From a virus (taxonomy: Duplodnaviria; Heunggongvirae; Uroviricota; Caudoviricetes): a DNA stretch of 42,238 nt. Below, one piece after another: positions 106-10,088 of this stretch; within the stretch, counting starts at the first letter, position 1, and every line of letters starts with the position of its first letter. The notes beneath the pieces were generated by a model, which was given only the letters and a program-made list of their open reading frames with translations, made no database searches and was not told where the DNA came from. The stretch lies in the IMG/VR virus record IMGVR_UViG_2703718851_000004, positions 1-42,238 of that record, one strand, 5' to 3'. Both the position numbers and the translations under genes were made by a program.

Positions 106-251
106 TGAACGTGAAACATTAAAAATCATTAATATCAATGCATTACAATATCTTTAGTCTAAAAAATAGACTACATAATGCGACAAAACACAACATATCC
201 AGTCACTATGAATCAACCACTTAGATGGTATTAGTGACCTGTAACAGAGCA

Positions 252-290
252 TTAGCGCAAGGTGATTTTTGTCTTCTTGCGCTAATTTTT
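252..290 (+). terminator. Hairpin plus T-run, terminator-like element between att arm and gtrA
   Basis: Perfect 10-bp stem TTAGCGCAAG/CTTGCGCTAA with 14-nt loop followed by TTTTT. Confidence 0.4.
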
Positions 291-549
291 TGTCAACATA
301 CTGGGTTATCTGAATTTACAACCATGCTCAGTATCTCGATAAGCGCAGAGAAATGATGCAGTGGTGGGCGGACTGGATTGATGAAAAGGTGGAGTGAGGA
401 AACTTAAACACCATCGGATAGCACAAAGCCTTGCAATCCAGTGCAAAGCTTTGTGTGTCTCAGTGTTGTCTCATCAACCACAGCAAGTATCGATCGATTG
501 AGACTTGGATGATAGACTTCATGCCTTTGATTATTAGCTGATAGAAGAA

Positions 550-912
550 ATGTTAAAACTATTTGCAAAGTACACCTCTATTGGCGTGCTGAACACCCTT
601 ATACACTGGGTGGTTTTTGGTGTATGTATCTATGCCGCGCATACCAATCAGGCTCTGGCAAACTTCGCAGGTTTTGTTGTGGCTGTGAGTTTTAGCTTCT
701 TCGCGAATGCAAAATTCACATTCAAAGCATCAACTACAACGATGCGCTACATGTTATATGTCGGGTTCATGGGAACACTGAGTGCTACTGTTGGATGGGC
801 TGCTGATAGATGTTCACTTCCTCCAATTGTCACTCTTGTCACCTTCTCCGCCATCAGCCTGGTGTGCGGTTTCGTCTATTCAAAGTTCATTGTCTTTAGG
901 GATGCGAAATGA
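550..912 (+). CDS. gtrA: GtrA-family bactoprenol-glucose flippase
   Basis: 120-aa hydrophobic ORF with GtrA-like sequence; first gene of three-gene cassette; stop overlaps gtrB start. Confidence 0.85.
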
Positions 913-1838
913 AGATATCTCTGGTCGTTCCTGTCTTCAATGAAGAAGAAGCGATACCAATTTTTTATAAAACGGTACGTGAATTCGAAGAATTGAAGTC
1001 ATATGAAGTGGAAATTGTTTTCATAAATGACGGCAGCAAAGACGCTACGGAGTCAATTATTAATGCTCTGGCTGTGGCCGATCCGCTTGTCGTTCCTCTT
1101 TCCTTCACCCGTAATTTCGGTAAAGAGCCCGCTCTGTTCGCCGGGCTTGACCACGCAACAGGTGATGCGGTTATCCCGATTGATGTTGACCTGCAGGACC
1201 CGATTGAAGTCATTCCTTATCTCATCGAGAAGTGGCAGGCAGGCGCTGACATGGTCCTGGCTAAGCGTTCTGATCGCTCCACCGACAGCAGACTAAAGCG
1301 CAAATCCGCTGAGTGGTTTTATAAGCTGCATAACAAAATAAGCAATCCGCAGATCGAGGAGAACGTCGGTGACTTCCGCCTGATGTCCCGTGCCGTGGTT
1401 GAGAACATCAAACTGTTGCCGGAGCGCAACCTCTTCATGAAGGGCGTTCTGAGTTGGGTTGGAGGGCGTACTGATGTTGTCGAGTATGCTCGCGCTGGGC
1501 GTGTCGCCGGAGACTCAAAATTCAATGGCTGGAAGCTCTGGAACTTGGCACTTGAGGGCATTACTAGCTTCTCAACCTTCCCTCTTCGCATGTGGACTTA
1601 TATTGGCCTGATGGTCGCCGGCCTGTCGTTTCTTTACGGCGCCTGGATGATTATCGACACGTTGGCTTTCGGTAATGCGGTACGTGGTTATCCTTCACTG
1701 TTAGTATCTATTTTGTTTCTGGGCGGAATCCAGTTAATAGGGATAGGTGTTCTTGGTGAGTACATCGGCAGAATTTACACTGAAGTTAAGCAGCGTCCTA
1801 GGTATATTTTGAAGGGCATTAAAAATGAAAAAAAATAA
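909..1838 (+). CDS. gtrB: GtrB bactoprenol glucosyltransferase (GT2 family)
   Basis: 309 aa; N-terminal GT2 motifs ([22 protein letters not shown]) and C-terminal TM helices. Confidence 0.88.
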
Positions 1839-3279
1839 TACTTATCACATCCCATTTATATTAATAGGGTTGTTTTATTTGCCATTCATCATAAACAATC
1901 AACTTTACGTTGATGATATTTTTAGGGCGCAGAATGGTTTTGATGGGTGGTCTCAAAACGGAAGGCCTTTAGCAGATTTGCTGATGCATCTGCTAATGAT
2001 ATCCTCATCCAAGTTACCTGGTTATGGAATATTTGGACAGGTATTATCAGTAGCAGTAATGTCAATGACAGCAATTTTCTATACTCGTCACATACTTGGT
2101 TCGACAAGCGTGGCAGCGTTAATTTGCGCGTCAGGCTTCGCGCTAAGTCCATTTTATATAGAAAACATGCTCTATCAGTACGATAACCTGCCAATGACGC
2201 TTTCACTTTGTGGTGCGGTTGTTGCTTCTGTCTACGCACTTAAAGAAGACAAAATCTACTTTATTGCATCTTTTATTATCATTGCTTTTAGCGCGGCTTT
2301 ATATCAGACATCAATAAATTCATACATAGCTCTTGTGGCAGTAAACTTAATTGTGAAATTAAAAAAATCTAATGACTGCGCAAAGGAAGTTATTATTTTA
2401 GCTTTAAAAGCAATGGCATCTCTCGCCATTGGCATGATTCTTTATTATTTTATAATAAAGGTTGCTTTCCCGATGACTGGAACAAGAGACCAGGCAATAT
2501 CGTTAGATGCGTCACTTATTGATTACTTTGTAAAAAGAATGGTTAGATTTTATACTTTATTAGAATCAAGTCTATCTATCTATTATGTGGCAATATATTT
2601 ATTGACTTTAGCGTTACTGGTAACAACAACCAAACCAAGAGTTTCGTTTTTAAATATCGCGATAATCATAATCTGTATTTCCGTGGTTGCCATATCACCA
2701 ATAGGAATGCTGGCGATTTTCGGTGAATCAGCCATTGCAGCGAGAATGATGATGGGGGCTGTAGGATTAACAGCTTTAATTTTCACCATGATATCCATAA
2801 GCGAAATTAGTAATAATAAAAAATATTTTGCAATCGCTGTCATCGCAATACCTTTATATGTAATTTCATATGGCTTTTCCTTTGCTATCAAAGAGCAGAG
2901 AATTTATGACAAGTCAATTTTATACCTGTCAATTAATGACATCAGAAATAGCTCAGATTACAATATAAATTCGTACATTGTATATTCTGGCAGGGCGCCA
3001 ATAGCTCCCTTATCGATAAATACTGTAAAAGCATATCCATTAATCTCTACAATGTTGGTTCCAACATATGATTGGACGTCTAGCATGGCTGCCCAGTCAA
3101 TCGACATCCCAAATGTAAAATTCAATTTTGCTAGAGAAGAACAGAAAAAGATAATATCCAATGTATGTGCATCTATAACCAAGCCAATAAAATCCACCAA
3201 TTCTTATTCGATATATTTCAACCAAGAAAACAATGGCTTTTTAATATGGTTAAAAGGAGGAGGCAACACCCCGTGCTGA
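1825..3279 (+). CDS. gtrC: GtrC-type serotype-specific O-antigen glucosyltransferase (polytopic membrane protein)
   Basis: 484-aa multi-TM ORF directly after gtrB, start overlaps gtrB stop; markedly AT-rich relative to flanks. Confidence 0.7.
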
Positions 3280-3312: not shown

Positions 3313-5472
3313 TTACGTCGAGTAGGTAAATGGCGGCTGCTCCTCCAGTGGAACAACTTTTAACCTATTAAGTGAGTAATATGCAGAGTTTCCGGTAAAG
3401 GTGAGAGTCAACACCCCCGTTGTTGAATTAAAGCTTGCAGATGGTGCTGGTATGGTAGATGTTCCAACTAAGCTTCTGCCTTGATATCCAGTAACGCTGC
3501 AAACATTACCCACCAAAACATTAAATCTTAAATCTTGCTGTAATGTTACAGCCACATTTTTCATTAGAAGCCTGCATGAGTATTCTCCCCCTGCCACACA
3601 ATTGCTTACCTGTATATCGAATGTGTTTGCTCCTTGAGCGATTGAAGGTGAACGCATGGTGTACACATCAAGAAGCCCTTTAAATTGGACTGTATAACCT
3701 CTCAACGGCGCTAAAGTATCAGCTATATTTTCTGTAATTGGATGCTCGCAATTTATTTTGATTCCATAACGCCCGAAGCCAAGATCTTTGGTAATCAATT
3801 TAAATGGTGATCCAATCTTCATGTCGTGAACATTGATCTGTGAGATATCAGTCTTGACTACCGCCCCACTTGACAGTGTGTTTCCAGATTGAACAGCAAA
3901 ATCTTTTATATCATGGTTGCAGAAAACACCGAACGTATTAATAGTTGACCCCACGCACTGACACCAAACTCGGTGACCAGTCTCGCTGGCGGCTACATTT
4001 ACACTCTCACTATAACCTCCGAAAACATTAACGTTACCACTATAAAAGAGGGCGAAATCTCGATTGTACCCCTCCCATGTTACTCCGTGCATATTTATGT
4101 CGACACAGTCGTGGGCATAGAGAAAAGTGGTGACATAGGCAATATTTGGTCTATTTGATACATCTCCGGATCTGTGGAACCATTGTGCCGTGCCTTTATC
4201 CCATGTTTGCGATAAATTACCAGTATAATATCCTCCTACCAAGTTTAGTGCCGTAGTGTGGGGTGTTAAAAATGTTGCATATTTAGCGCCTTGTGCAAAG
4301 CAATTCTCTACCGCAGTCCCCCAAGAACCACTTATCCAAAAGCTAACCTTACAGTCATACACTGCAACTCCAATCAGTTTGGCATCCGGAGTCCTCCAGA
4401 TTCTAATTCCCGCCTGCGTATCTGGACGGCCCAATAAAACAATATTCTCTATATATGGTCCATAATATCCAGCACTCAAATACAGCCCATTTTCCACACT
4501 GTTTGTCACTGTATATCTTGCAGTGCCGTCTGATAGCCATGGAGCGGTATCTAGAAGCAATTTATTTACATCCATGGACGTCATAGCAATAATAATTGAG
4601 CATCCTGCGCGTGAATATCTAAAGCCAGACGTTCCTCCCGTGCCAATTACCCTTACATTTGGAGAGAGATAAATAGTGTCATTAATGAAGTATTGAGCAG
4701 TTGGAAAAACAACATCCCCGCCTTGATGTGAGTCATATGAGGCATCAAGGTAAGGGTTTAGATATGAAATCGCAGCATTGATAGCTGGCGCGCAGTCGAA
4801 GGTACTATCGTTAATTTTTGCCCCAAACTCCAACGGACTCACCGTCCTTGCGACATACGCAGAGGATATCTCTCGCTTCCAGCGTCCTGTTCCAGTATTG
4901 CCAGTTGGGTTAATGGTATAGCCTCCGTCATCAGTATCAGTGCTGGTTGAATTCCAGCGGAAATATCCTCCGCCATAACCAGTTCCAAGGTGATAAGAAT
5001 CAACATAGACTCTTCCATTTTCCTTAACTGATGAGTATGCAGTAAATGCTCGTAGATCTGCTATTGATGAGAATGTACCAAATAATGCATAAGAATCAGG
5101 CGCAGACATCTTGGCAAGCCATTCTGCAGAAAACTGATCCGGGTCATACTTCAGCACATTAGGAAAATAGAACTGCTGCACACCGTATGCATCATAAACA
5201 GCCATCGAATGGCCTTGCACAGTTACGAACTTGGCAATCTGTCCGTTATATACCGGGTAACCAGCAGCGTTAATGATGATTGGTTGCGAAACAGGAACGT
5301 GAGATCCGTCTTCATTCTCTACATAAACCTGAATCTGGTTTTCAGTATTTACCGGGTCAGTGTCAATTTTTCCGATATAAATTTTGCCATTGGCTACGGC
5401 TTTAAAAGAACGAGCCATAGTGAAGAGTTGCGAAGGCATCGATACAATCACATTAGCTGTAATATCTGTCAT
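3313..5472 (-). CDS. Tailspike protein; P22-type N-terminal head-binding domain with divergent receptor-binding domain
   Basis: 719 aa; first ~110 residues match P22 gp9 head-binding domain from memory (MTDITANV...[11 protein letters not shown]...LKYDPDQ); last gene of virion module. Confidence 0.88.
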
Positions 5473-5530
5473 TTAATTTGCTCCAGATACAAGGAATCGC
5501 CGCAGCATGGCTACGGTGAATTTTGGGCAT

Positions 5531-5553
5531 AAAAAAACCCAGCCGAAGCTGGG
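5531..5553 (-). terminator. Intrinsic terminator (minus strand) upstream of tailspike gene
   Basis: Stem CCCAGC/GCTGGG with loop CGAA, followed on minus strand by TTTTTTT. Confidence 0.6.
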
Positions 5554-5605
5554 TCGTTGCGTTGGTTATCTGTCAGTAGTTATGTACTGGCTGAAGGATT
5601 TGTAC

Positions 5606-5636
5606 AAAAAACCCACCTGAAGGTGGGTTAATTTTT
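5606..5636. terminator. Bidirectional intrinsic terminator
   Basis: Stem CCCACC/GGTGGG with loop TGAA, flanked by A-run on one side and T-run on the other. Confidence 0.6.
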
Positions 5637-5719
5637 GCATTTACCTGGGCCATATTGACTACTTATAAAATGAGATCAATATTTAATCGCCCAATAACGG
5701 GTGTATGTTGAGGTATATC

Positions 5720-5899
5720 ATGGCGAAAAAACCAGGTGAAAACACAGGAAAAAACGGCGGAATATACCAAGAGGTTGGCCCACGCGGCGGTAAGAAAGAC
5801 AATTTTGCCACCGTCAAGGACAACGAAAGGCTTCCGCCAACAACAAAGCCAGGTCATGGCTGGGTATTGGATAAGCGAACTCCAGACAGCAAAAAGTAA
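5720..5899 (+). CDS. Small basic K/G-rich hypothetical protein (59 aa; alternative start 5705)
   Basis: ORF with GAGG RBS 8 nt upstream of ATG 5720; candidate TTGACT -35 at 5655..5660; terminator immediately downstream. Confidence 0.5.
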   Translation: MAKKPGENTGKNGGIYQEVGPRGGKKDNFATVKDNERLPPTTKPGHGWVLDKRTPDSKK

Positions 5900-5905
5900 T
5901 ACTCA

Positions 5906-5927
5906 AGCCGGGTCACTCCGGCTTTTT
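5906..5927 (+). terminator. Intrinsic terminator after small ORF
   Basis: Stem AGCCGG/CCGGCT with loop GTCACT followed by TTTTT; overlaps the stop of the convergent 5913..6278 gene. Confidence 0.55.
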
Positions 5928-6278
5928 GATATGTCGCTCGCAGAACTCAACAAGCCTGCTCATTAAGTAGCAGTAAGTCTCGTTGGCTCTTCCTGGTTCA
6001 ACATCAACACCTACCCTTGAGCAGATATCGAATGCCATGTGAGCACACTCATGGGCAATAGTAGATAGTTTGCCATTGAACACGCCTATCACATGCAAAA
6101 CACCATTCTCGCTGCTCATTGTATGAGACGCTCCGTTGGCATCCGAGTCCTGCACGTCCACACCAAGTTTTTGATGCAGGCGTTGCCATTCTGGAAAGTC
6201 TCTACAAAACACAATTGTACCGCTCTCAAAGAGCGGAACGAGCATCTTTGGTACGTTTCCAATGTTAACTTTTTTCAT
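5913..6278 (-). CDS. Hypothetical 121-aa protein with HExxH zinc-metallopeptidase motif (mini-zincin-like)
   Basis: ORF with AGGA RBS; motif [11 protein letters not shown] (H76-E77-x-x-H80) with glutamates 14-20 residues downstream. Confidence 0.55.
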
Positions 6279-6308
6279 GGTATCCTGCGTAAAACTAAGG
6301 AGGTTGGT

Positions 6309-6803
6309 GTGTCTGATTCTATGAGTTACGCTGTGCTAGTTGCCGCAACTCTATTTCTGGGGATAGGGTTGCAGATTGCGTGGTTCTTTTTTTCTAGTTT
6401 TATTAAACGTAAAAGAATTGAATCAAGGATATCTGAGATTTCTATTGCTATAGGGAAAAATGCTGAAAATCCAGAGAATGAGGCCTGCGCACTGAATTAC
6501 CTTAAAGAAAAGTTTTCCCCTGAAAAATTTGAAAACAGAATTACTGATGCTCTTGGATTGGTAATATCAGTAATTCATATGCCACTAAGTTTACTGATAA
6601 CAGTGTGGTACTTCGCCATGATCGCCGGAAGAATATTTGGTTTCATGAATATAGATCCTGTAGTTCTTTGGGTTCCAATGATACTGCAATTGTTGTTAAG
6701 CGTTGCTATCTTTATTTTTTCTGTTTTTATAAAAATTGTCTTTGGAAGATACCCCGGAGAAGCGAAGGGATTTAATAAAGAATTCATAAAAACTATAAAA
6801 TAA
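6309..6803 (+). CDS. Hypothetical AT-rich integral membrane protein (about 4 TM segments); start GTG 6309 or ATG 6321
   Basis: AAGGAGG RBS at 6296..6302; four long hydrophobic stretches; AT-rich; divergent from the HExxH gene. The 6093 upstream extension of the ORF is judged non-coding. Confidence 0.6.
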
Positions 6804-6825
6804 ATGCCGTCCCTGGCTTACAGTG

Positions 6826-8700
6826 CTACTGCCGGGTAGCTTCGTTAACTAAGAGCGGGCGCACGGCAGTAGCCGCCTGATTTAGCGCTCTTTCATAGGC
6901 TGGTGTTCCTGCTTTGGTGTTTGCCAAGCGTAAGAGAGCATTCCTTGCTGCTTTGGATTCATACAAGCGCATCATTGCACCGAAACCAGCCTCAAGCCCC
7001 ATTGATACGCCAAGAGTCGCAGTTGCGCCAATCGTCCTTATCCTGTTGGCTTGCGATTGCCCCGTCTGAGTTACTACATTTGCGGTGTCTGACCTTGCTG
7101 TTTGCTGTAGAACTTCATGAAGAGCATCAAGTTCTTTCATGTGCTTTCCAGAAAAAATAGTGTTGTAAATTTCACCGCCTGACTGAGATTTCAGCTTATT
7201 AACTTCAGTGATGAACTTGGCTGGAGAGTCACCTGCCTTTTCCGCTATTTTGCTGACGTAAGCTGCACGCATAGCATCTTTCCCTTTATCATCCAATGCG
7301 CTCCAGATTCGTTTCACGTCAGATGGTTTTCTACTTAATACAACGGTATTTATAAGTTCAGGACTGGCTTCACTGCTTGCCTTGTTGAGCTTGTTAGCAA
7401 TGTTTTTATTAAGCACCTTATTATAAACGTTTGCATAATCGGAATTTGCTTTAAGGTATTTTGCTGCGTCTGATGCACCTAGGTTTTTAGCAACTGCGTT
7501 ACGAAGGTCTTTTGACATTGCATTCTCTACCATATTGGTAGCTGCTTTTGCCTGGTTGGGGAAGACCATAGCATCTCCCTGAACATTAGATCTAAATGCT
7601 GTTCTGTGCTGGCGCAAGAGATCAAACGTAACATCCAAATCAGTTGCAGGGTTTGCTAATTCTTCACGTAGGTTACGCAAGGATGTAAGCAGGCTTTGAT
7701 TGGCAGACGTCCCAAGCCGTTCCTGTCTTGCGATCGCTGTATTCAGAGCATTCATGGTATTTGTGGTATCAACTGCGGCATTACCCATTTTATTGGTGAC
7801 GTCATTGATAACAGCGCCAGCGGCATCCTTCCGCCCCCTTAACGTGGTGGTCAGAGATTTCACCACATCATCAGGGTTGTACTCACCAAAACGGTCAAAA
7901 TAATTGCTTACCAGCTTACTACGCGTTGCATATTGCTCCGCTCTCTTTGAGCCTGTCCCGAGCAAAGCCCCCTCGGCATCCTGAGTAAGGCCGCGAGTGA
8001 AAGCATTTTTCGGCGGGATAACATCAGATGTCATTGGTGTCACGCCCATCGATTCTGATGTGGCAATTTTCTTCGCCACTTCTGGCGCAATATCACCTTT
8101 TATAGCCGTTATTCCACGCCCTATTCCCTTTGCTGCTGCGGAAAGAACCCCCTGAGCGGCAAGGTTAACTCCGGCATTTTTAGCTGCATTTTGTGCGAAA
8201 TCGCCTTTCTGATTTGCGGCCTCTGCCAGTGATCCAATAGCCATGCTTCCTGCCGTTCCAACTCCTGGAACTAAATACCCACCAATTGTTTCACCGGCTT
8301 GCGCGTAGGGGTCTGTCGGTCTGTCTACTGGACGATAAACATCATCCAAAACCTTGGGTCCACCAAGCCCCTGACTGATTGCATTAATCAGACTTGCGCC
8401 ACCCTGCAATACGTCAAATGGTATGTTTACCAGACCACGACCAGCCTGTTCTGCAATTTGCCCTGCACTTTGACCACCAGTGAGCCAATCGCCAGCTTGT
8501 TGCATCAATGATGGTTCTTCTTTCTGCTGCTGAGTCGGAGGGTATGCTGCATAAAACTGATCTCTTGCTTCAGCCCATTTGTCACCAGCCTTAGGGGCAA
8601 CAACCTCATCAAAATATTGCGCTTGAGCCTGTGCTTTCTGTTCTTCAGTTAACGCCTGATACTGTGGAGAGGCGATAACATCTTTCCATGCTTTAGCCAT
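6826..8700 (-). CDS. Ejection (injection) protein, P22 gp16-like
   Basis: 624 aa; last of three ejection-protein genes in P22-type order (7, 20, 16). Confidence 0.75.
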
Positions 8701-10088
8701 TAATCACCCCATAGTGAAGAAAAGTTACTGCTGGCTGCTGGCTGTGATACCTGTGCAGGTTGAGATTGCTGCCGCTGAGATTTACCAACATTAACGTTAT
8801 ATTGTTGGTTGTAATTGTTGGTGTATTCCTGAATCTCACGAATCGACTGCTGCATAGCCTCCGGGCTTGAATAGTCAACCTGCGGCATCCCCTGAAAATA
8901 CATCTTCGCTTCTGCAACGGTGTTAATACCACTGGCACCCATGTCCCTTGCTGCCGCCACACCCTGATTCTGCATTCTGCCCTGAATACGTTGTGCTGAG
9001 TTATATAACTGGCGCTGCTCTTTTCCTGTTAATCGGCTGCGAACATCAGCACCAATTGCTGGATTACCTGCACCGCCTGTCATTCCTGTCATGAAATCGA
9101 GAGCAGAAGCGTCTGCATTTGCGATCGCGTCGATATCCTTCTTCATGGCATAGTTTTGTGCTGATGCAGACGATGTTGCAGGCGCTGCGATTGAACTGGC
9201 AGGAACGCGAACCATATTCCCCTCGTTGTCGATGCCTTCGTAGAACGCATTAGCCCCAGCGCCGTGAAGCTTCCCGCCTACCGTTACAGTTCTGCCATCT
9301 GATAACTGAACTGTACGCTCATCATTCCCAGCGATTCGTCTTGTTGACGCTCGCTGCATTGCCAAATCCTGACCTCGTCGCGCAGTAGAAGCAGATAAGT
9401 CCTGACCGCGCATCGTGATGTTCTGACCTCGTGATGTTAGTGCCTCTCCTGCCTGATTGCTGCGGATTGTCTCTGCCAGTCTGCCTCGGTCAATCTCACG
9501 ACCAGCCATCTTGTCCTGAACATTGAAGTAATCAATCGGACCAAGAGCAGCCATTCCAAGGTGATCAACAAACTCACCAAATCCTGAAGGGTTCTGCTGA
9601 TACATCTGAGCAACGCTGTTAGGGTCAACACCGACGCGAGTCAGTTCCTTGGCGTTGTTTTGCAGCCATGATTGCATTGCTTCTGGAGACGATGACGCAA
9701 GGCGTGCACCAGCCGCTAAGGTGCCGATAGAATTACGCTGGTCTTCATCAATGAATCCCATGCCTTTACGAACGGATTCAATCTGGTCTGGATATTGAGT
9801 AGCCAACTGACGCAAAGCACCGCGATCACCAGACGCATAAGCATTAGCGTACGCCTGCTGAAATTCTTTCTGCCGCTGAGCCTGCTTTTCCTGCTGAAAC
9901 ACCCCCGCAATACCTGAAAGGCCTTGCAAAGCAGTCAGCCCAACATTGTTAGCGCCTGAACGCTCAATATCATTGTTCTGCCTGATAAGCTGAAGCGTAT
10001 TGCCGATGTCATTTACGCTCGGAGCGTTTGAGTTGACGCCGCCGATACCAGCCAACAATCCGCCGTTTGTTCCTTGCCAAGTAGCCAT
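8700..10088 (-). CDS. Ejection protein, P22 gp20-like
   Basis: 462 aa; synteny between gp7-like and gp16-like genes. Confidence 0.75.

Follow-up and report, generated by a model that had tools for sequence, protein, structure and literature searches.

The DNA between the tailspike gene and the gene 16 homologue of the window (the whole stretch of 42,238 nucleotides that was analysed) holds the well-studied sieA and two long-catalogued genes, hkcC and orf59a, and its content is already known. We read the region, with a probability of roughly 0.88 for the whole explanation including the hkcC/orf59a cassette, as the already-described 'ant moron' of a P22-like prophage, in which P22's sieA is joined to HK620's immI-deleted arrangement. 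The locus is ordinary, save for the unexplained co-travel of hkcC and orf59a between unrelated phages.

A P22-type locus with the HK620 deletion

The features of the region and of its flanks are as follows (positions in the window, strand, description and evidence).

3313..5472, minus strand: tailspike gene, the P22 gene 9 homologue and left flank (Pfam Head_binding over residues 1-113, E=1.6e-65, then a pectate-lyase-like domain; PHROG tail spike families)
5504..5589, minus strand: 3' remnant of ant, made of the last 17 nt of ant (5573..5589) and the tANT hairpin (5536..5555); 95.3% identity to P22 L001 1988..2073, the annotated ant terminator; fold z=-3.0; 'tANT, remnant of P22 ant' in HK620
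5590..5620, plus strand: mnt remnant, the last 31 nt with the stop codon (...LKDLYKKPT, stop); the P22 match begins 31 nt before the mnt stop, and the ORF 5507..5620 ends in the Mnt C-terminal residues
5610..5629, both strands: tMNT, a bidirectional hairpin directly after the mnt remnant (scan on both strands; -14.8 and -16.9 kcal/mol, z=-3.0 and -4.2; 'tMNT' in HK620)
5655..5683, plus strand: promoter-like TTGACT-17-AATATT upstream of orf59a (consensus scan only, 9/12 matches)
5720..5899, plus strand: orf59a (hkcD in HK620), coding for a 59-aa basic protein, probably of the YjzC family, pI 9.9 (P22/HK620 homology)
5905..5924, plus strand: tORF59A, the orf59a terminator (P22 'mnt terminator', annotated at L001 3816..3838; scan and fold; 'bidirectional terminator tORF59A' in HK620)
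5913..6278, minus strand: hkcC, coding for a 121-aa soluble, zincin-like protein with an HExxH...E motif (HK620 hkcC homologue; phrog_1365, E=1.4e-39)
6248..6278, plus strand: PsieA, putative sieA promoter inside the first hkcC codons (equivalent to the annotated P22 promoter, L001 4159..4189)
6309..6803, plus strand: sieA, type A, coding for a 164-aa superinfection-exclusion protein, predicted to lie in the inner membrane (phrog_7745, E=1.7e-108, residues 1-164 of 164)
6826..8700, minus strand: gene 16 homologue, ejection/DNA-transfer protein, SieA target and right flank (phrog_770 'DNA transfer protein', E=3.5e-277; P22 annotation)

Positions 5590..6823 share 96.9% DNA identity with phage P22, and the P22 annotations of sieA, orf59a, promoter and terminator map across. 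HK620 aligns with 5300..6316 at 96.3% identity, colinearly and without gaps, deletion junction included, and the alignment spans its annotated tANT, tMNT, tORF59A, hkcC and hkcD (NC_002730 annotation). This similarity stops at 6316, beyond which HK620 carries hkcB (109 aa, without a Pfam match) whereas the window carries sieA. The initial annotation had placed three ORFs at 5720..5899 (+), 5913..6278 (-) and 6309..6803 (+), exactly where we find them, and had been unable to place them in a described system. All three are P22/HK620 genes, with 92-100% amino-acid identity, and this clear homology to known P22 sieA/immI genes ends the claim of novelty. The description of the region as an AT-rich island holds for sieA (GC 0.349), but not for hkcC (0.462) or orf59a (0.483), which are both near the window average of 0.468.

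Relative to P22, a deletion of 1427 bp, with the junction seen in HK620, has removed mnt, arc, sar and ant, and an Rfam scan of 5200..7000 gave terminator-like matches, all below threshold, and detected no sar RNA. The loss of mnt-arc-ant left behind 31 nt of mnt and 17 nt of ant, together with tMNT and tANT, close to the tailspike gene on its upstream side. Because the P22 immI genes are deleted, there is no secondary immunity system here, and a residual immI function was rejected given that the mnt, arc and ant genes are missing and only these two short remnants are left. A terminator scan gave 5 sites, compared to 1.8 expected from shuffles, with fold z-scores of -3.0 to -4.2. The hairpins previously proposed as insulating intrinsic terminators do exist, at 5536-5555 (-), 5610-5629 (both strands) and 5905-5924 (+), but 'insulating' is not an apt description, since they correspond to immI leftovers and to the orf59a terminator, already annotated in HK620. 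With Pmnt deleted, expression of orf59a here would depend on the promoter-like site at 5655..5683, which is therefore a candidate for the gene's own promoter.

SieA and superinfection exclusion

Judged by its sequence, the product of 6309..6803 is P22-type SieA. It is identical to P22 SieA at 152 of 165 positions (stop codon counted; 92% amino-acid identity), the two genes differing by 13 non-synonymous codon changes (13 amino-acid substitutions) and 9 synonymous ones. The motif FxRYPxEAxxFNK is present near the C-terminus (residues 145-157), and the RefSeq name of the protein in E. coli is 'superinfection exclusion protein A'. Type-A sieA is rare in E. coli, being found in 7 of 5426 complete genomes at a coverage of at least 80%. 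The genomes with exactly the same arrangement as the window are E. coli.

P22 SieA has been characterised as a protein of the inner membrane that prevents the injection of DNA; it has three predicted transmembrane helices and the conserved cytoplasmic motif FxRYPxEAxxFNK (PMC10883804). A 19-residue Kyte-Doolittle scan, which is not a dedicated topology predictor, detected three hydrophobic regions in the protein of the window, centred at ~14-23, 87-104 and 121-141, rather than the four segments initially counted. The stated rule for type-A SieA is that its gene sits between genes 16 and 9 of a P22-like prophage and is read against the late genes (PMC10883804), and the sieA of the window lies between the homologues of these two genes, on the plus strand, with gene 16 and the tailspike gene both on the minus strand. 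The earlier remarks that the membrane gene runs antisense to late transcription, that this slot holds lysogen-expressed cargo and that an exclusion function was to be expected were correct, as was the prediction of a promoter overlapping coding sequence, PsieA lying within hkcC. Work on P22 has established that SieA is expressed in the lysogen from PsieA and is inserted in the inner membrane, where it disturbs the gp20/gp16 ejection-protein conduit, so that superinfecting P22-like phages fail to deliver their DNA; the allele of the window would act likewise. SieA escape mutants map to gp16/gp20 (PMC10883804).

The block of DNA injection by SieA alone has been demonstrated for P22 SieA and for type-B HS1 SieA (PMC10883804), and a sieA gene preceded by 85 bp of its upstream sequence is enough for full exclusion (Leavitt 2024, PMC10883804); exclusion needs no second phage gene. 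These data bear on the proposal that the divergent zincin and membrane genes form a functional unit, a novel two-component exclusion system made of SieA and of the HExxH protein. Such a system would fit the divergent start codons, which lie 30 bp apart (6278 for hkcC and 6309 for sieA, in line with the ~30 bp first reported), and the overlap of PsieA with the hkcC 5' end. It is nevertheless very improbable, given that sieA suffices, that HK620 keeps an identical hkcC beside the unrelated hkcB, and that siphovirus hkcC loci have no sieA. Moreover, in an IMG/VR locus search that gave near-identical P22-like loci only, and which serves for neighbour statistics and not for diversity, type-A sieA adjoins the near-identical hkcC in only 10 of 80 loci, compared to 69 of 80 for orf59a. 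As a two-component system for the exclusion of P22-like phages, the sieA-hkcC combination was already refuted by the sufficiency of sieA.

HkcC and Orf59a

hkcC is a real and constrained gene. Its product has the amino-acid sequence of HK620 HkcC (100% identity), as does that of an ORF which the reference P22 record (BK000583/NC_002371) leaves without annotation; between the window and P22 there are 2 synonymous and 0 non-synonymous changes. This omission would be accounted for if the 121-aa ORF were no gene and had arisen by chance opposite the sieA promoter region, a reading to which we give practically no credence. An AGGA Shine-Dalgarno lies 4 nt upstream of the hkcC ATG, homologues share 43-77% identity, reaching down to 23%, four catalytic-type residues are invariant, the AF2 fold is confident (pLDDT 88.6), the only changes are synonymous, and the gene is annotated in HK620 and in many other phage records; the candidate non-gene was hence rejected. 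The hkcC family comprises 526 clusters in the representative library. Neither HkcC nor Orf59a has a Pfam, NCBIfam or PADLOC match above threshold, and no informative domain fusion was found among the 10 longest family members.

The HExxH motif reported in the initial annotation corresponds to H76-E77-C78-A79-H80, that is, residues 76-80 of 121. Among 122 diverse family members, the only invariant residues are H76, E77, H80 and E100, a pattern that supports, at the motif level, the 'mini-zincin' reading of this protein. The AF2 model has a beta-beta-alpha-beta-beta-alpha-alpha topology, in which H76, E77 and H80 fall in a predicted helix (71-88), while E100, located 20 residues past H80 and immediately preceded by N99, marks the start of another (100-116), suggesting that E100 is the third metal ligand. 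SprT-like matches were obtained for 19 of the 122 relatives (best E=1e-4, below the gathering score), and a deep hkcC profile searched against PDB sequences gave weak matches to the metzincins myroilysin and BMP1 (E=0.014-0.1); both groups of weak matches centre on the HExxH motif of the family. Nothing was found in PDB sequences with a shallow profile, and no HkcC-family match to curated peptidase family models reached any curated threshold. We propose that HkcC is, most likely, a zinc metallopeptidase of minimal size, whose predicted metal site, HExxH-(19)-E, is thermolysin-like.

Orf59a scores 19.4 bits against PF14168, for a gathering cut-off of 25. By contrast with this direct score, phmmer ties it to the PF14168-annotated proteins P0259 and P0275-P0285 (E=4e-18 to 5e-4), with which it aligns along the signature KPG...GxYQEVGPRGG...LPPT...PG. 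Orf59a is thus probably a YjzC-family protein, small, basic and of beta structure; its gene is read from the prophage strand.

The hkcC-orf59a pair

The stable partner of hkcC is the convergent orf59a, and not sieA; this is new here. The pair is found in P22-like 16/9 slots (P22, HK620, Morganella and L093). In siphoviruses it occupies the tail-tube/tape-measure slot (Klebsiella, Rosenbergiella and two lineages from metagenomes); it also follows the lysis cassette in Xenorhabdus and is present in one further metagenome context. Across loci, the two genes are convergent, with 3' ends 4-30 bp apart. In the window, the 3' arm and the T-run of tORF59A are coded by the last hkcC codons (KKPE, stop), and an equivalent hairpin spans the hkcC stop in 9 of 9 other loci examined, with differing stem sequences. 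The Xenorhabdus pair combines a strongly diverged hkcC (profile E=1e-13) with an orf59a that is still 76% identical. This compact convergent cassette would move as one piece between unrelated phages. The two genes are not always paired: hkcC-like genes stand by themselves in epsilon34/L/ST64T, mEp044 and phCDa, the distant members of epsilon34/L/ST64T and mEp044 lying between lysis and terminase genes; another distant relative without orf59a is found in an N4-like Pseudomonas phage, these settings being late or early operons. Reciprocally, orf59a occurs without hkcC in S. bongori and in compost contigs.

hkcC has the orientation of the late genes that flank it, gene 16 and the tailspike gene, and is probably transcribed with the late operon. 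Its upstream gaps in late operons measure 30-85 bp for most loci, with 360 bp for L005, and a consensus scan found no promoter-like site on its strand. Because the hairpin is not followed by a U-run on the late strand, late transcription through hkcC would run antisense over orf59a. From strand and terminator geometry only, we therefore infer that the two genes are expressed in opposite phases, orf59a being on in the prophage and hkcC on late in lytic growth. The literature searched yielded no expression data on either gene, and a search on hkcC, orf59a, YjzC and SprT-like anti-defence proteins retrieved no functional study.

What the pair does can be read in several ways. Our own tentative proposal, which we hold as rather doubtful, is that it constitutes an unrecognised mobile cassette, composed of a minimal HExxH...E metallopeptidase and a YjzC-family protein with a shared built-in terminator, which enters late operons in temperate phages that are not related to each other (P22-like podoviruses, lambda-like siphoviruses, Xenorhabdus prophages) and serves as a conflict module with a phase switch. 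The prophage would produce Orf59a, and HkcC would be produced late, its transcription silencing orf59a by antisense read-through and the protease neutralising or processing Orf59a or its target.

It is also possible, though not probable, that hkcC is an independent late enzyme for host takeover or counter-defence, a minimal SprT/zincin-type protease cutting a host or rival-phage protein, and that orf59a is a hitch-hiking moron whose terminator is embedded in hkcC. The large and mostly stand-alone family (526 clusters), the distant members in late or early operons without orf59a (epsilon34/L/ST64T, mEp044, the N4-like Pseudomonas phage) and the constant co-directionality of hkcC with the surrounding structural or lysis genes all agree with an independent enzyme. 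By contrast, the persistence of the pairing where hkcC has strongly diverged, as in Xenorhabdus, argues against it.

Finally, the initial layout-based suggestion leaves room for a toxin-antidote or abortive-infection pair, in which an HkcC protease toxin is checked by Orf59a, or the reverse, and which shields lysogens, as a population, against other phages. A mobile cassette of two closely set genes that recurs in several unrelated phage backbones, with a conserved catalytic-type motif in one partner and a very small, highly conserved other partner, would be compatible with this hypothesis. We nonetheless consider it unlikely: the genes are convergent, whereas those of type II toxin-antitoxin operons are co-transcribed, hkcC sits tightly within late operons without a promoter-like site found on its strand, each gene also occurs singly, and searches gave no PADLOC match at E<=1 and no relevant NCBIfam or Pfam match. 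In addition, a high-copy plasmid with P22 sieA-orf59a-mnt (cited in PMC10883804) was tolerated, and would have carried hkcC.

Discussion

The finding as submitted opens nothing new, being the classical P22/HK620 'ant moron' with an exclusion factor that is already characterised. The addition made here is modest and consists of a testable lead on two P22 genes listed as of 'unknown function' for more than 20 years. New here are the orf59a terminator built into the last codons of hkcC and the invariant H76, E77, H80 and E100 with thermolysin-like spacing. Two leads emerge: the metalloprotease-type site of HkcC is strictly conserved in a family of hundreds of clusters, and hkcC and orf59a move together, as a compact cassette, among phages of different morphotypes. 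P22 being a premier genetic model, experiments on the pair are easy. Should the pair turn out to serve in defence or counter-defence, the 791 of 5426 complete E. coli genomes with a match would be directly concerned.

Compared with known systems, hkcC, orf59a and sieA all have counterparts at the P22 locus, and hkcC and orf59a also at that of HK620. P22 sieA (type A; Hofer 1995, Leavitt 2024, PMC10883804) is the same gene in the same slot between genes 16 and 9, with the same orientation and upstream promoter region; it differs from the allele of the window by its 13 amino-acid substitutions, and the exact window arrangement is carried by E. coli hosts. P22 immI (mnt-arc-sar-ant) occupies the same genomic slot, of which the 31 nt of mnt, the 17 nt of ant and the terminators survive here. 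The hkcB-hkcC-hkcD-tMNT-tANT region of HK620 has in common with the window an identical HkcC, an orf59a/hkcD homologue, the immI junction and the three terminators, with hkcB in the place that sieA has here. With the YjzC-like family (PF14168), Orf59a shares the signature and a length of ~60 aa, its direct score being below the gathering cut-off.

HkcC resembles gluzincins and minimal zincin peptidases (thermolysin-type, SprT-like PF10263, minigluzincins) in carrying HExxH on a long helix, with a beta sheet and a backing helix before it. In thermolysin, the metal site is spaced as H146...N165-E166, and HkcC matches this spacing, with an Asn-preceded Glu 20 residues after the second His, in the next helix. 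By contrast, the third ligand of SprT/SPRTN is a His and not a Glu, as is predicted for HkcC. Unlike zincin peptidases, HkcC, with its 121 aa, has no obvious substrate-binding domain.

The slot between gene 16 and the tailspike gene carries P22 and HK620 genes

When 5473..6825 was searched by megablast in phage records, 5590..6823 aligned with 96.9% identity to phage P22 and equally to dozens of P22-group phages. The curated P22 annotation (BK000583) was transferred to the window and combined with the ORF list, the raw sequence, and a terminator scan with folding.

Features of the slot and its late-gene flanks
3313..5472, (-), tailspike with P22 head-binding domain (late-gene flank, other side)
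5531..5554, ant terminator (P22 annotation mapped)
5536-5555, (-), hairpin terminator (scan and fold)
5610-5629, both strands, hairpin terminator (scan and fold)
5720..5899, (+), orf59a, 59 aa (ORF list, raw sequence; P22 annotation mapped)
5905-5924, (+), hairpin terminator (scan and fold)
5905..5927, P22 'mnt terminator' (P22 annotation mapped)
5913..6278, (-), hkcC, 121 aa, H76-E77-C78-A79-H80 (ORF list, raw sequence)
6248..6278, putative sieA promoter (P22 annotation mapped)
6309..6803, (+), sieA, 164 aa, hydrophobic, GTG start after a TAAGGAGGT Shine-Dalgarno (ORF list, raw sequence; P22 annotation mapped)
6826..8700, (-), gene 16-type DNA-transfer protein (late-gene flank)
8700..10088, (-), gene 20 (late-gene flank, same side as gene 16)

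The initial annotation had described a novel, AT-rich island of three unassignable ORFs. Its observations were largely accurate: the ORF list and raw sequence recovered all three ORFs, the HExxH motif, and the divergent start codons of hkcC and sieA, 30 bp apart. Its novelty interpretation is refuted, since sieA, orf59a, and hkcC are all P22/HK620 genes. The 121-aa hkcC ORF carries no annotation in the reference P22 record but is annotated in many others, and its product is 100% identical to HK620 HkcC. AT-richness holds for sieA (GC 0.349) and not for hkcC and orf59a (0.462 and 0.483), which lie near the window mean of 0.468. The three intrinsic terminators exist as well (5 sites in the scan versus 1.8 expected from shuffles; all three hairpins more stable than shuffled sequence by 3-4 standard deviations), but rather than insulating a new island they correspond to tANT, tMNT, and tORF59A of HK620. 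Among complete E. coli genomes, 791/5426 matched part of the region and only 7/5426 covered at least 80% of it, one with 99.0% identity over the full length; in some matching genomes the RefSeq name is 'superinfection exclusion protein A'.

The mnt, arc, sar, and ant genes of the P22 secondary immunity region (immI) are absent, removed by a clean 1427-bp deletion relative to P22 that left the final 31 nt of mnt (5590..5620) and the final 17 nt of ant (5573..5589). Since 5300..6316 aligns to HK620 without gaps (96.3%), the deletion junction is one already present in HK620, whose record labels the same elements 'tANT, remnant of P22 ant', 'tMNT, remnant of P22 mnt', and 'bidirectional terminator tORF59A'. 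These alignments indicate that the secondary immunity system was lost and that its two terminators persist immediately 5' of the tailspike gene; a role proposed for this region of P22 is to tune how much transcription continues into gene 9.

SieA probably accounts for superinfection exclusion

Across its whole length the sieA product matched PHROG 7745 ('superinfection exclusion SieA-like'; E=1.7e-108); it was identical to P22 SieA at 152/165 positions (stop codon counted), and retained the conserved motif FxRYPxEAxxFNK. A Kyte-Doolittle scan gives it three hydrophobic regions, not the four segments initially proposed; P22 SieA is likewise predicted to have three transmembrane helices (Leavitt et al. 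2024, PMC10883804). The same study located SieA exclusively in the inner membrane, found sieA genes always between genes 16 and 9 in P22-like prophages, mapped escape mutations to the C-terminal parts of the ejection proteins gp16 and gp20, and established that single-copy sieA with 85 bp of upstream DNA is enough for exclusion. Homology and these data assign a function to the largest of the slot's genes: SieA made by the prophage would stop the DNA of related phages at the inner membrane as it enters. Since sieA and its 85 bp suffice, the neighbouring HExxH gene hkcC is unneeded for exclusion. These 85 bp overlap the first hkcC codons, which confirms the initial proposal of a promoter overlapping coding sequence.

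The mechanical ORF list also contained a 236-aa ORF, 6093..6803 (+), in which sieA is extended upstream across hkcC on the opposite strand. A strong Shine-Dalgarno at 6296..6304, together with the P22 annotation, shows that sieA truly starts at GTG 6309; published work leaves the start uncertain, giving a length of either 162 or 164 aa. Relative to P22 (L001 4220..4714), sieA carries 13 non-synonymous and 9 synonymous codon changes, hkcC 0 and 2, and orf59a 1 and 5. These raw counts could mean that the exclusion protein is under relaxed or diversifying selection.

hkcC probably encodes a minimal zincin-like metalloprotein

A word-indexed search returned 32 hkcC homologues, down to 43% identity, in E. 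coli, Klebsiella, Rosenbergiella, and metagenomes, and an exhaustive profile search (E<=1e-3) extended the family to 526 clusters at 50% identity, nearly all of them stand-alone and 110-130 aa long. Across 122 aligned, diverse members, spanning 23-74% identity to the query, the sole invariant positions were H76, E77, H80, and E100. Thermolysin-type gluzincins are characterized by HExxH, 19 residues, and a Glu preceded by Asn, and HkcC has this very spacing. The AlphaFold2 model is confident (pLDDT 88.6), with a predicted order of beta-beta-alpha-beta-beta, a long HExxH helix, and a helix starting at E100, an order resembling the generic zincin topology. The window protein had no match among the curated families of Pfam, NCBIfam, and PADLOC. 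Nineteen of the 122 relatives matched Pfam SprT-like on the motif helix (best E=1e-4, below the gathering score), the deep profile weakly matched myroilysin and BMP1 in the PDB (E=0.014-0.1), and the best protease-like Foldseek match was SPRTN (E=0.14). We conclude that hkcC is a real gene, best read as encoding a minimal zincin-like metalloprotein, placed in no named peptidase family.

orf59a is the stable partner of hkcC

The orf59a product is basic (pI 9.9). A continuous homologue series and the shared signature KPG...GxYQEVGPRGG...LPPT...PG argue that it belongs to the YjzC-like family, its own Pfam score being 19.4 bits, under the cut-off of 25. In P22, mnt precedes orf59a and the 'mnt terminator' follows it. 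As the mnt promoter Pmnt is deleted in the window, orf59a expression would rely on a promoter-like consensus match from the scan (TTGACT-17-AATATT, 5655..5683 (+), 37 bp upstream), a candidate that could drive the gene after Pmnt loss. The sequence region of this site is also found in P22.

A convergent 59-61-aa gene, homologous to orf59a (76-78% identity), lies directly downstream of hkcC in every context examined at 43-65% identity. The pair occurs in siphovirus genomes of Klebsiella oxytoca and Rosenbergiella prophages and in two metagenome lineages, the siphovirus site being flanked by the tail tube/YdaY genes on one side and the tape-measure gene on the other; in a P22-like contig (L093) with a Rap1a-family gene in the sieA slot (209..562 (-), Pfam E=4.8e-15); in short metagenome contigs, next to a PhageMetallopep gene; in Morganella P22-like prophages, reached from orf59a homologues; and in Xenorhabdus prophages, straight after the lysis cassette, where hkcC has diverged much further (profile E=1e-13). 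Of 80 IMG/VR loci whose hkcC is near-identical, 69 carried a convergent orf59a within 60 bp, and the upstream gene was type-A (P22-type) sieA in 10, hkcB in 8, and something else in 62. The gene that stays with hkcC is thus orf59a rather than sieA. The linkage is non-obligate: hkcC-like genes occur solo (32-40% identity) in epsilon34, where the gene lies between the lysis and terminase genes, L, ST64T, ST104, mEp-type siphoviruses, and an N4-like Pseudomonas phage, and orf59a occurs solo in S. bongori prophages and compost contigs.

Several neighbours deserve mention. Pfam describes the Rap1a family as immunity proteins, further conflict-related cargo cycling through the sieA slot. The pair with the most divergent paired hkcC (43% identity) lies immediately upstream of the PhageMetallopep (PF18894) genes (L090 1330..1968 and L091 1229..1867, (+)), placing two putative metallopeptidases side by side. 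Near the lysis genes of the S. bongori prophages (L100..L102, 5878..7727), a GmrSD_N and HEPN (RiboL-PSP/MAE_28990) pair about 1.7 kb from the solo orf59a is probably an unrelated prophage defence locus.

The orf59a terminator is built into the 3' end of hkcC

In 10/10 contexts folded, 4-30 bp separate the 3' ends of hkcC and orf59a, and the hkcC stop codon is spanned by a GC-rich hairpin whose stem differs in sequence by lineage. A T-run comes after the hairpin on the orf59a strand and is encoded by the C-terminal Lys codons of hkcC (...KKPE*), so that hkcC physically contains the orf59a terminator; the hkcC strand has no U-run after the hairpin. The last hkcC codons (..KKPE* or ..KKPA*) form stem and T-run in the window (5900..5927) and in L003, L005, L089, L090, L093, L094, L096, L097, and L106, with stems AAGCCGG/CCGGCTT, AAACCGG/CCGGTTT, and AAGGCTAG/CTAGCCTT. 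Because these codons double as the terminator and the hairpin is kept in every lineage, part of the C-terminal HkcC 'conservation' may be an RNA/DNA constraint.

The arrangement suggests how the two genes might be deployed. hkcC would be part of the late message and yield a small metal-dependent hydrolase, its transcription running antisense across orf59a as far as the minus-strand tMNT and tANT; in the prophage, orf59a would be read from the other strand. Expression of the two genes would thus fall in opposite phases, late transcription silencing orf59a. A toxin-antitoxin pair, a rival reading of two such adjoining genes, is weakened by their convergence, by the solo occurrences of each, by the absence of PADLOC defence-model matches, and by a historical high-copy P22 sieA-orf59a-mnt plasmid (PMC10883804), which must, we infer, have carried hkcC. 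That hkcC-orf59a forms a mobile, phase-switched conflict cassette is itself a speculative reading, to which we assign roughly one chance in five.

Comparison with P22 and HK620

Next to the tailspike gene, on the side away from the slot, a gtrA/gtrB/gtrC-like O-antigen glucosylation cluster (550..3279 (+); GtrA_DPMS_TM, Glycos_transf_2, and an AT-rich GtrII gene, GC 0.352) is a second lysogenic-conversion/exclusion module of the window. The first 115 tailspike residues (3313..5472 (-)) form a head-binding domain 95% identical to that of HK620 and 75% to that of P22; the remainder is a pectate-lyase-like receptor-binding part whose best PHROG family is labelled 'colonic acid degradation activity'.

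The locus has been described before, in the annotations of P22 and HK620, by Villafane 2008, and by Leavitt 2024 (PMC10883804). As far as the searchable literature shows, neither the invariant HExxH...E site of HkcC nor the hkcC-orf59a cassette has been analysed, and these two constitute the modest, testable lead that remains. Compared with HK620, the sole difference is the gene beside gene 16, hkcB in HK620 and P22-type sieA in the window. Because an HK620-type immI deletion is combined with a P22-type sieA (5504..5636 junction, both terminators kept), the window is best read as a mosaic of the two reference phages.
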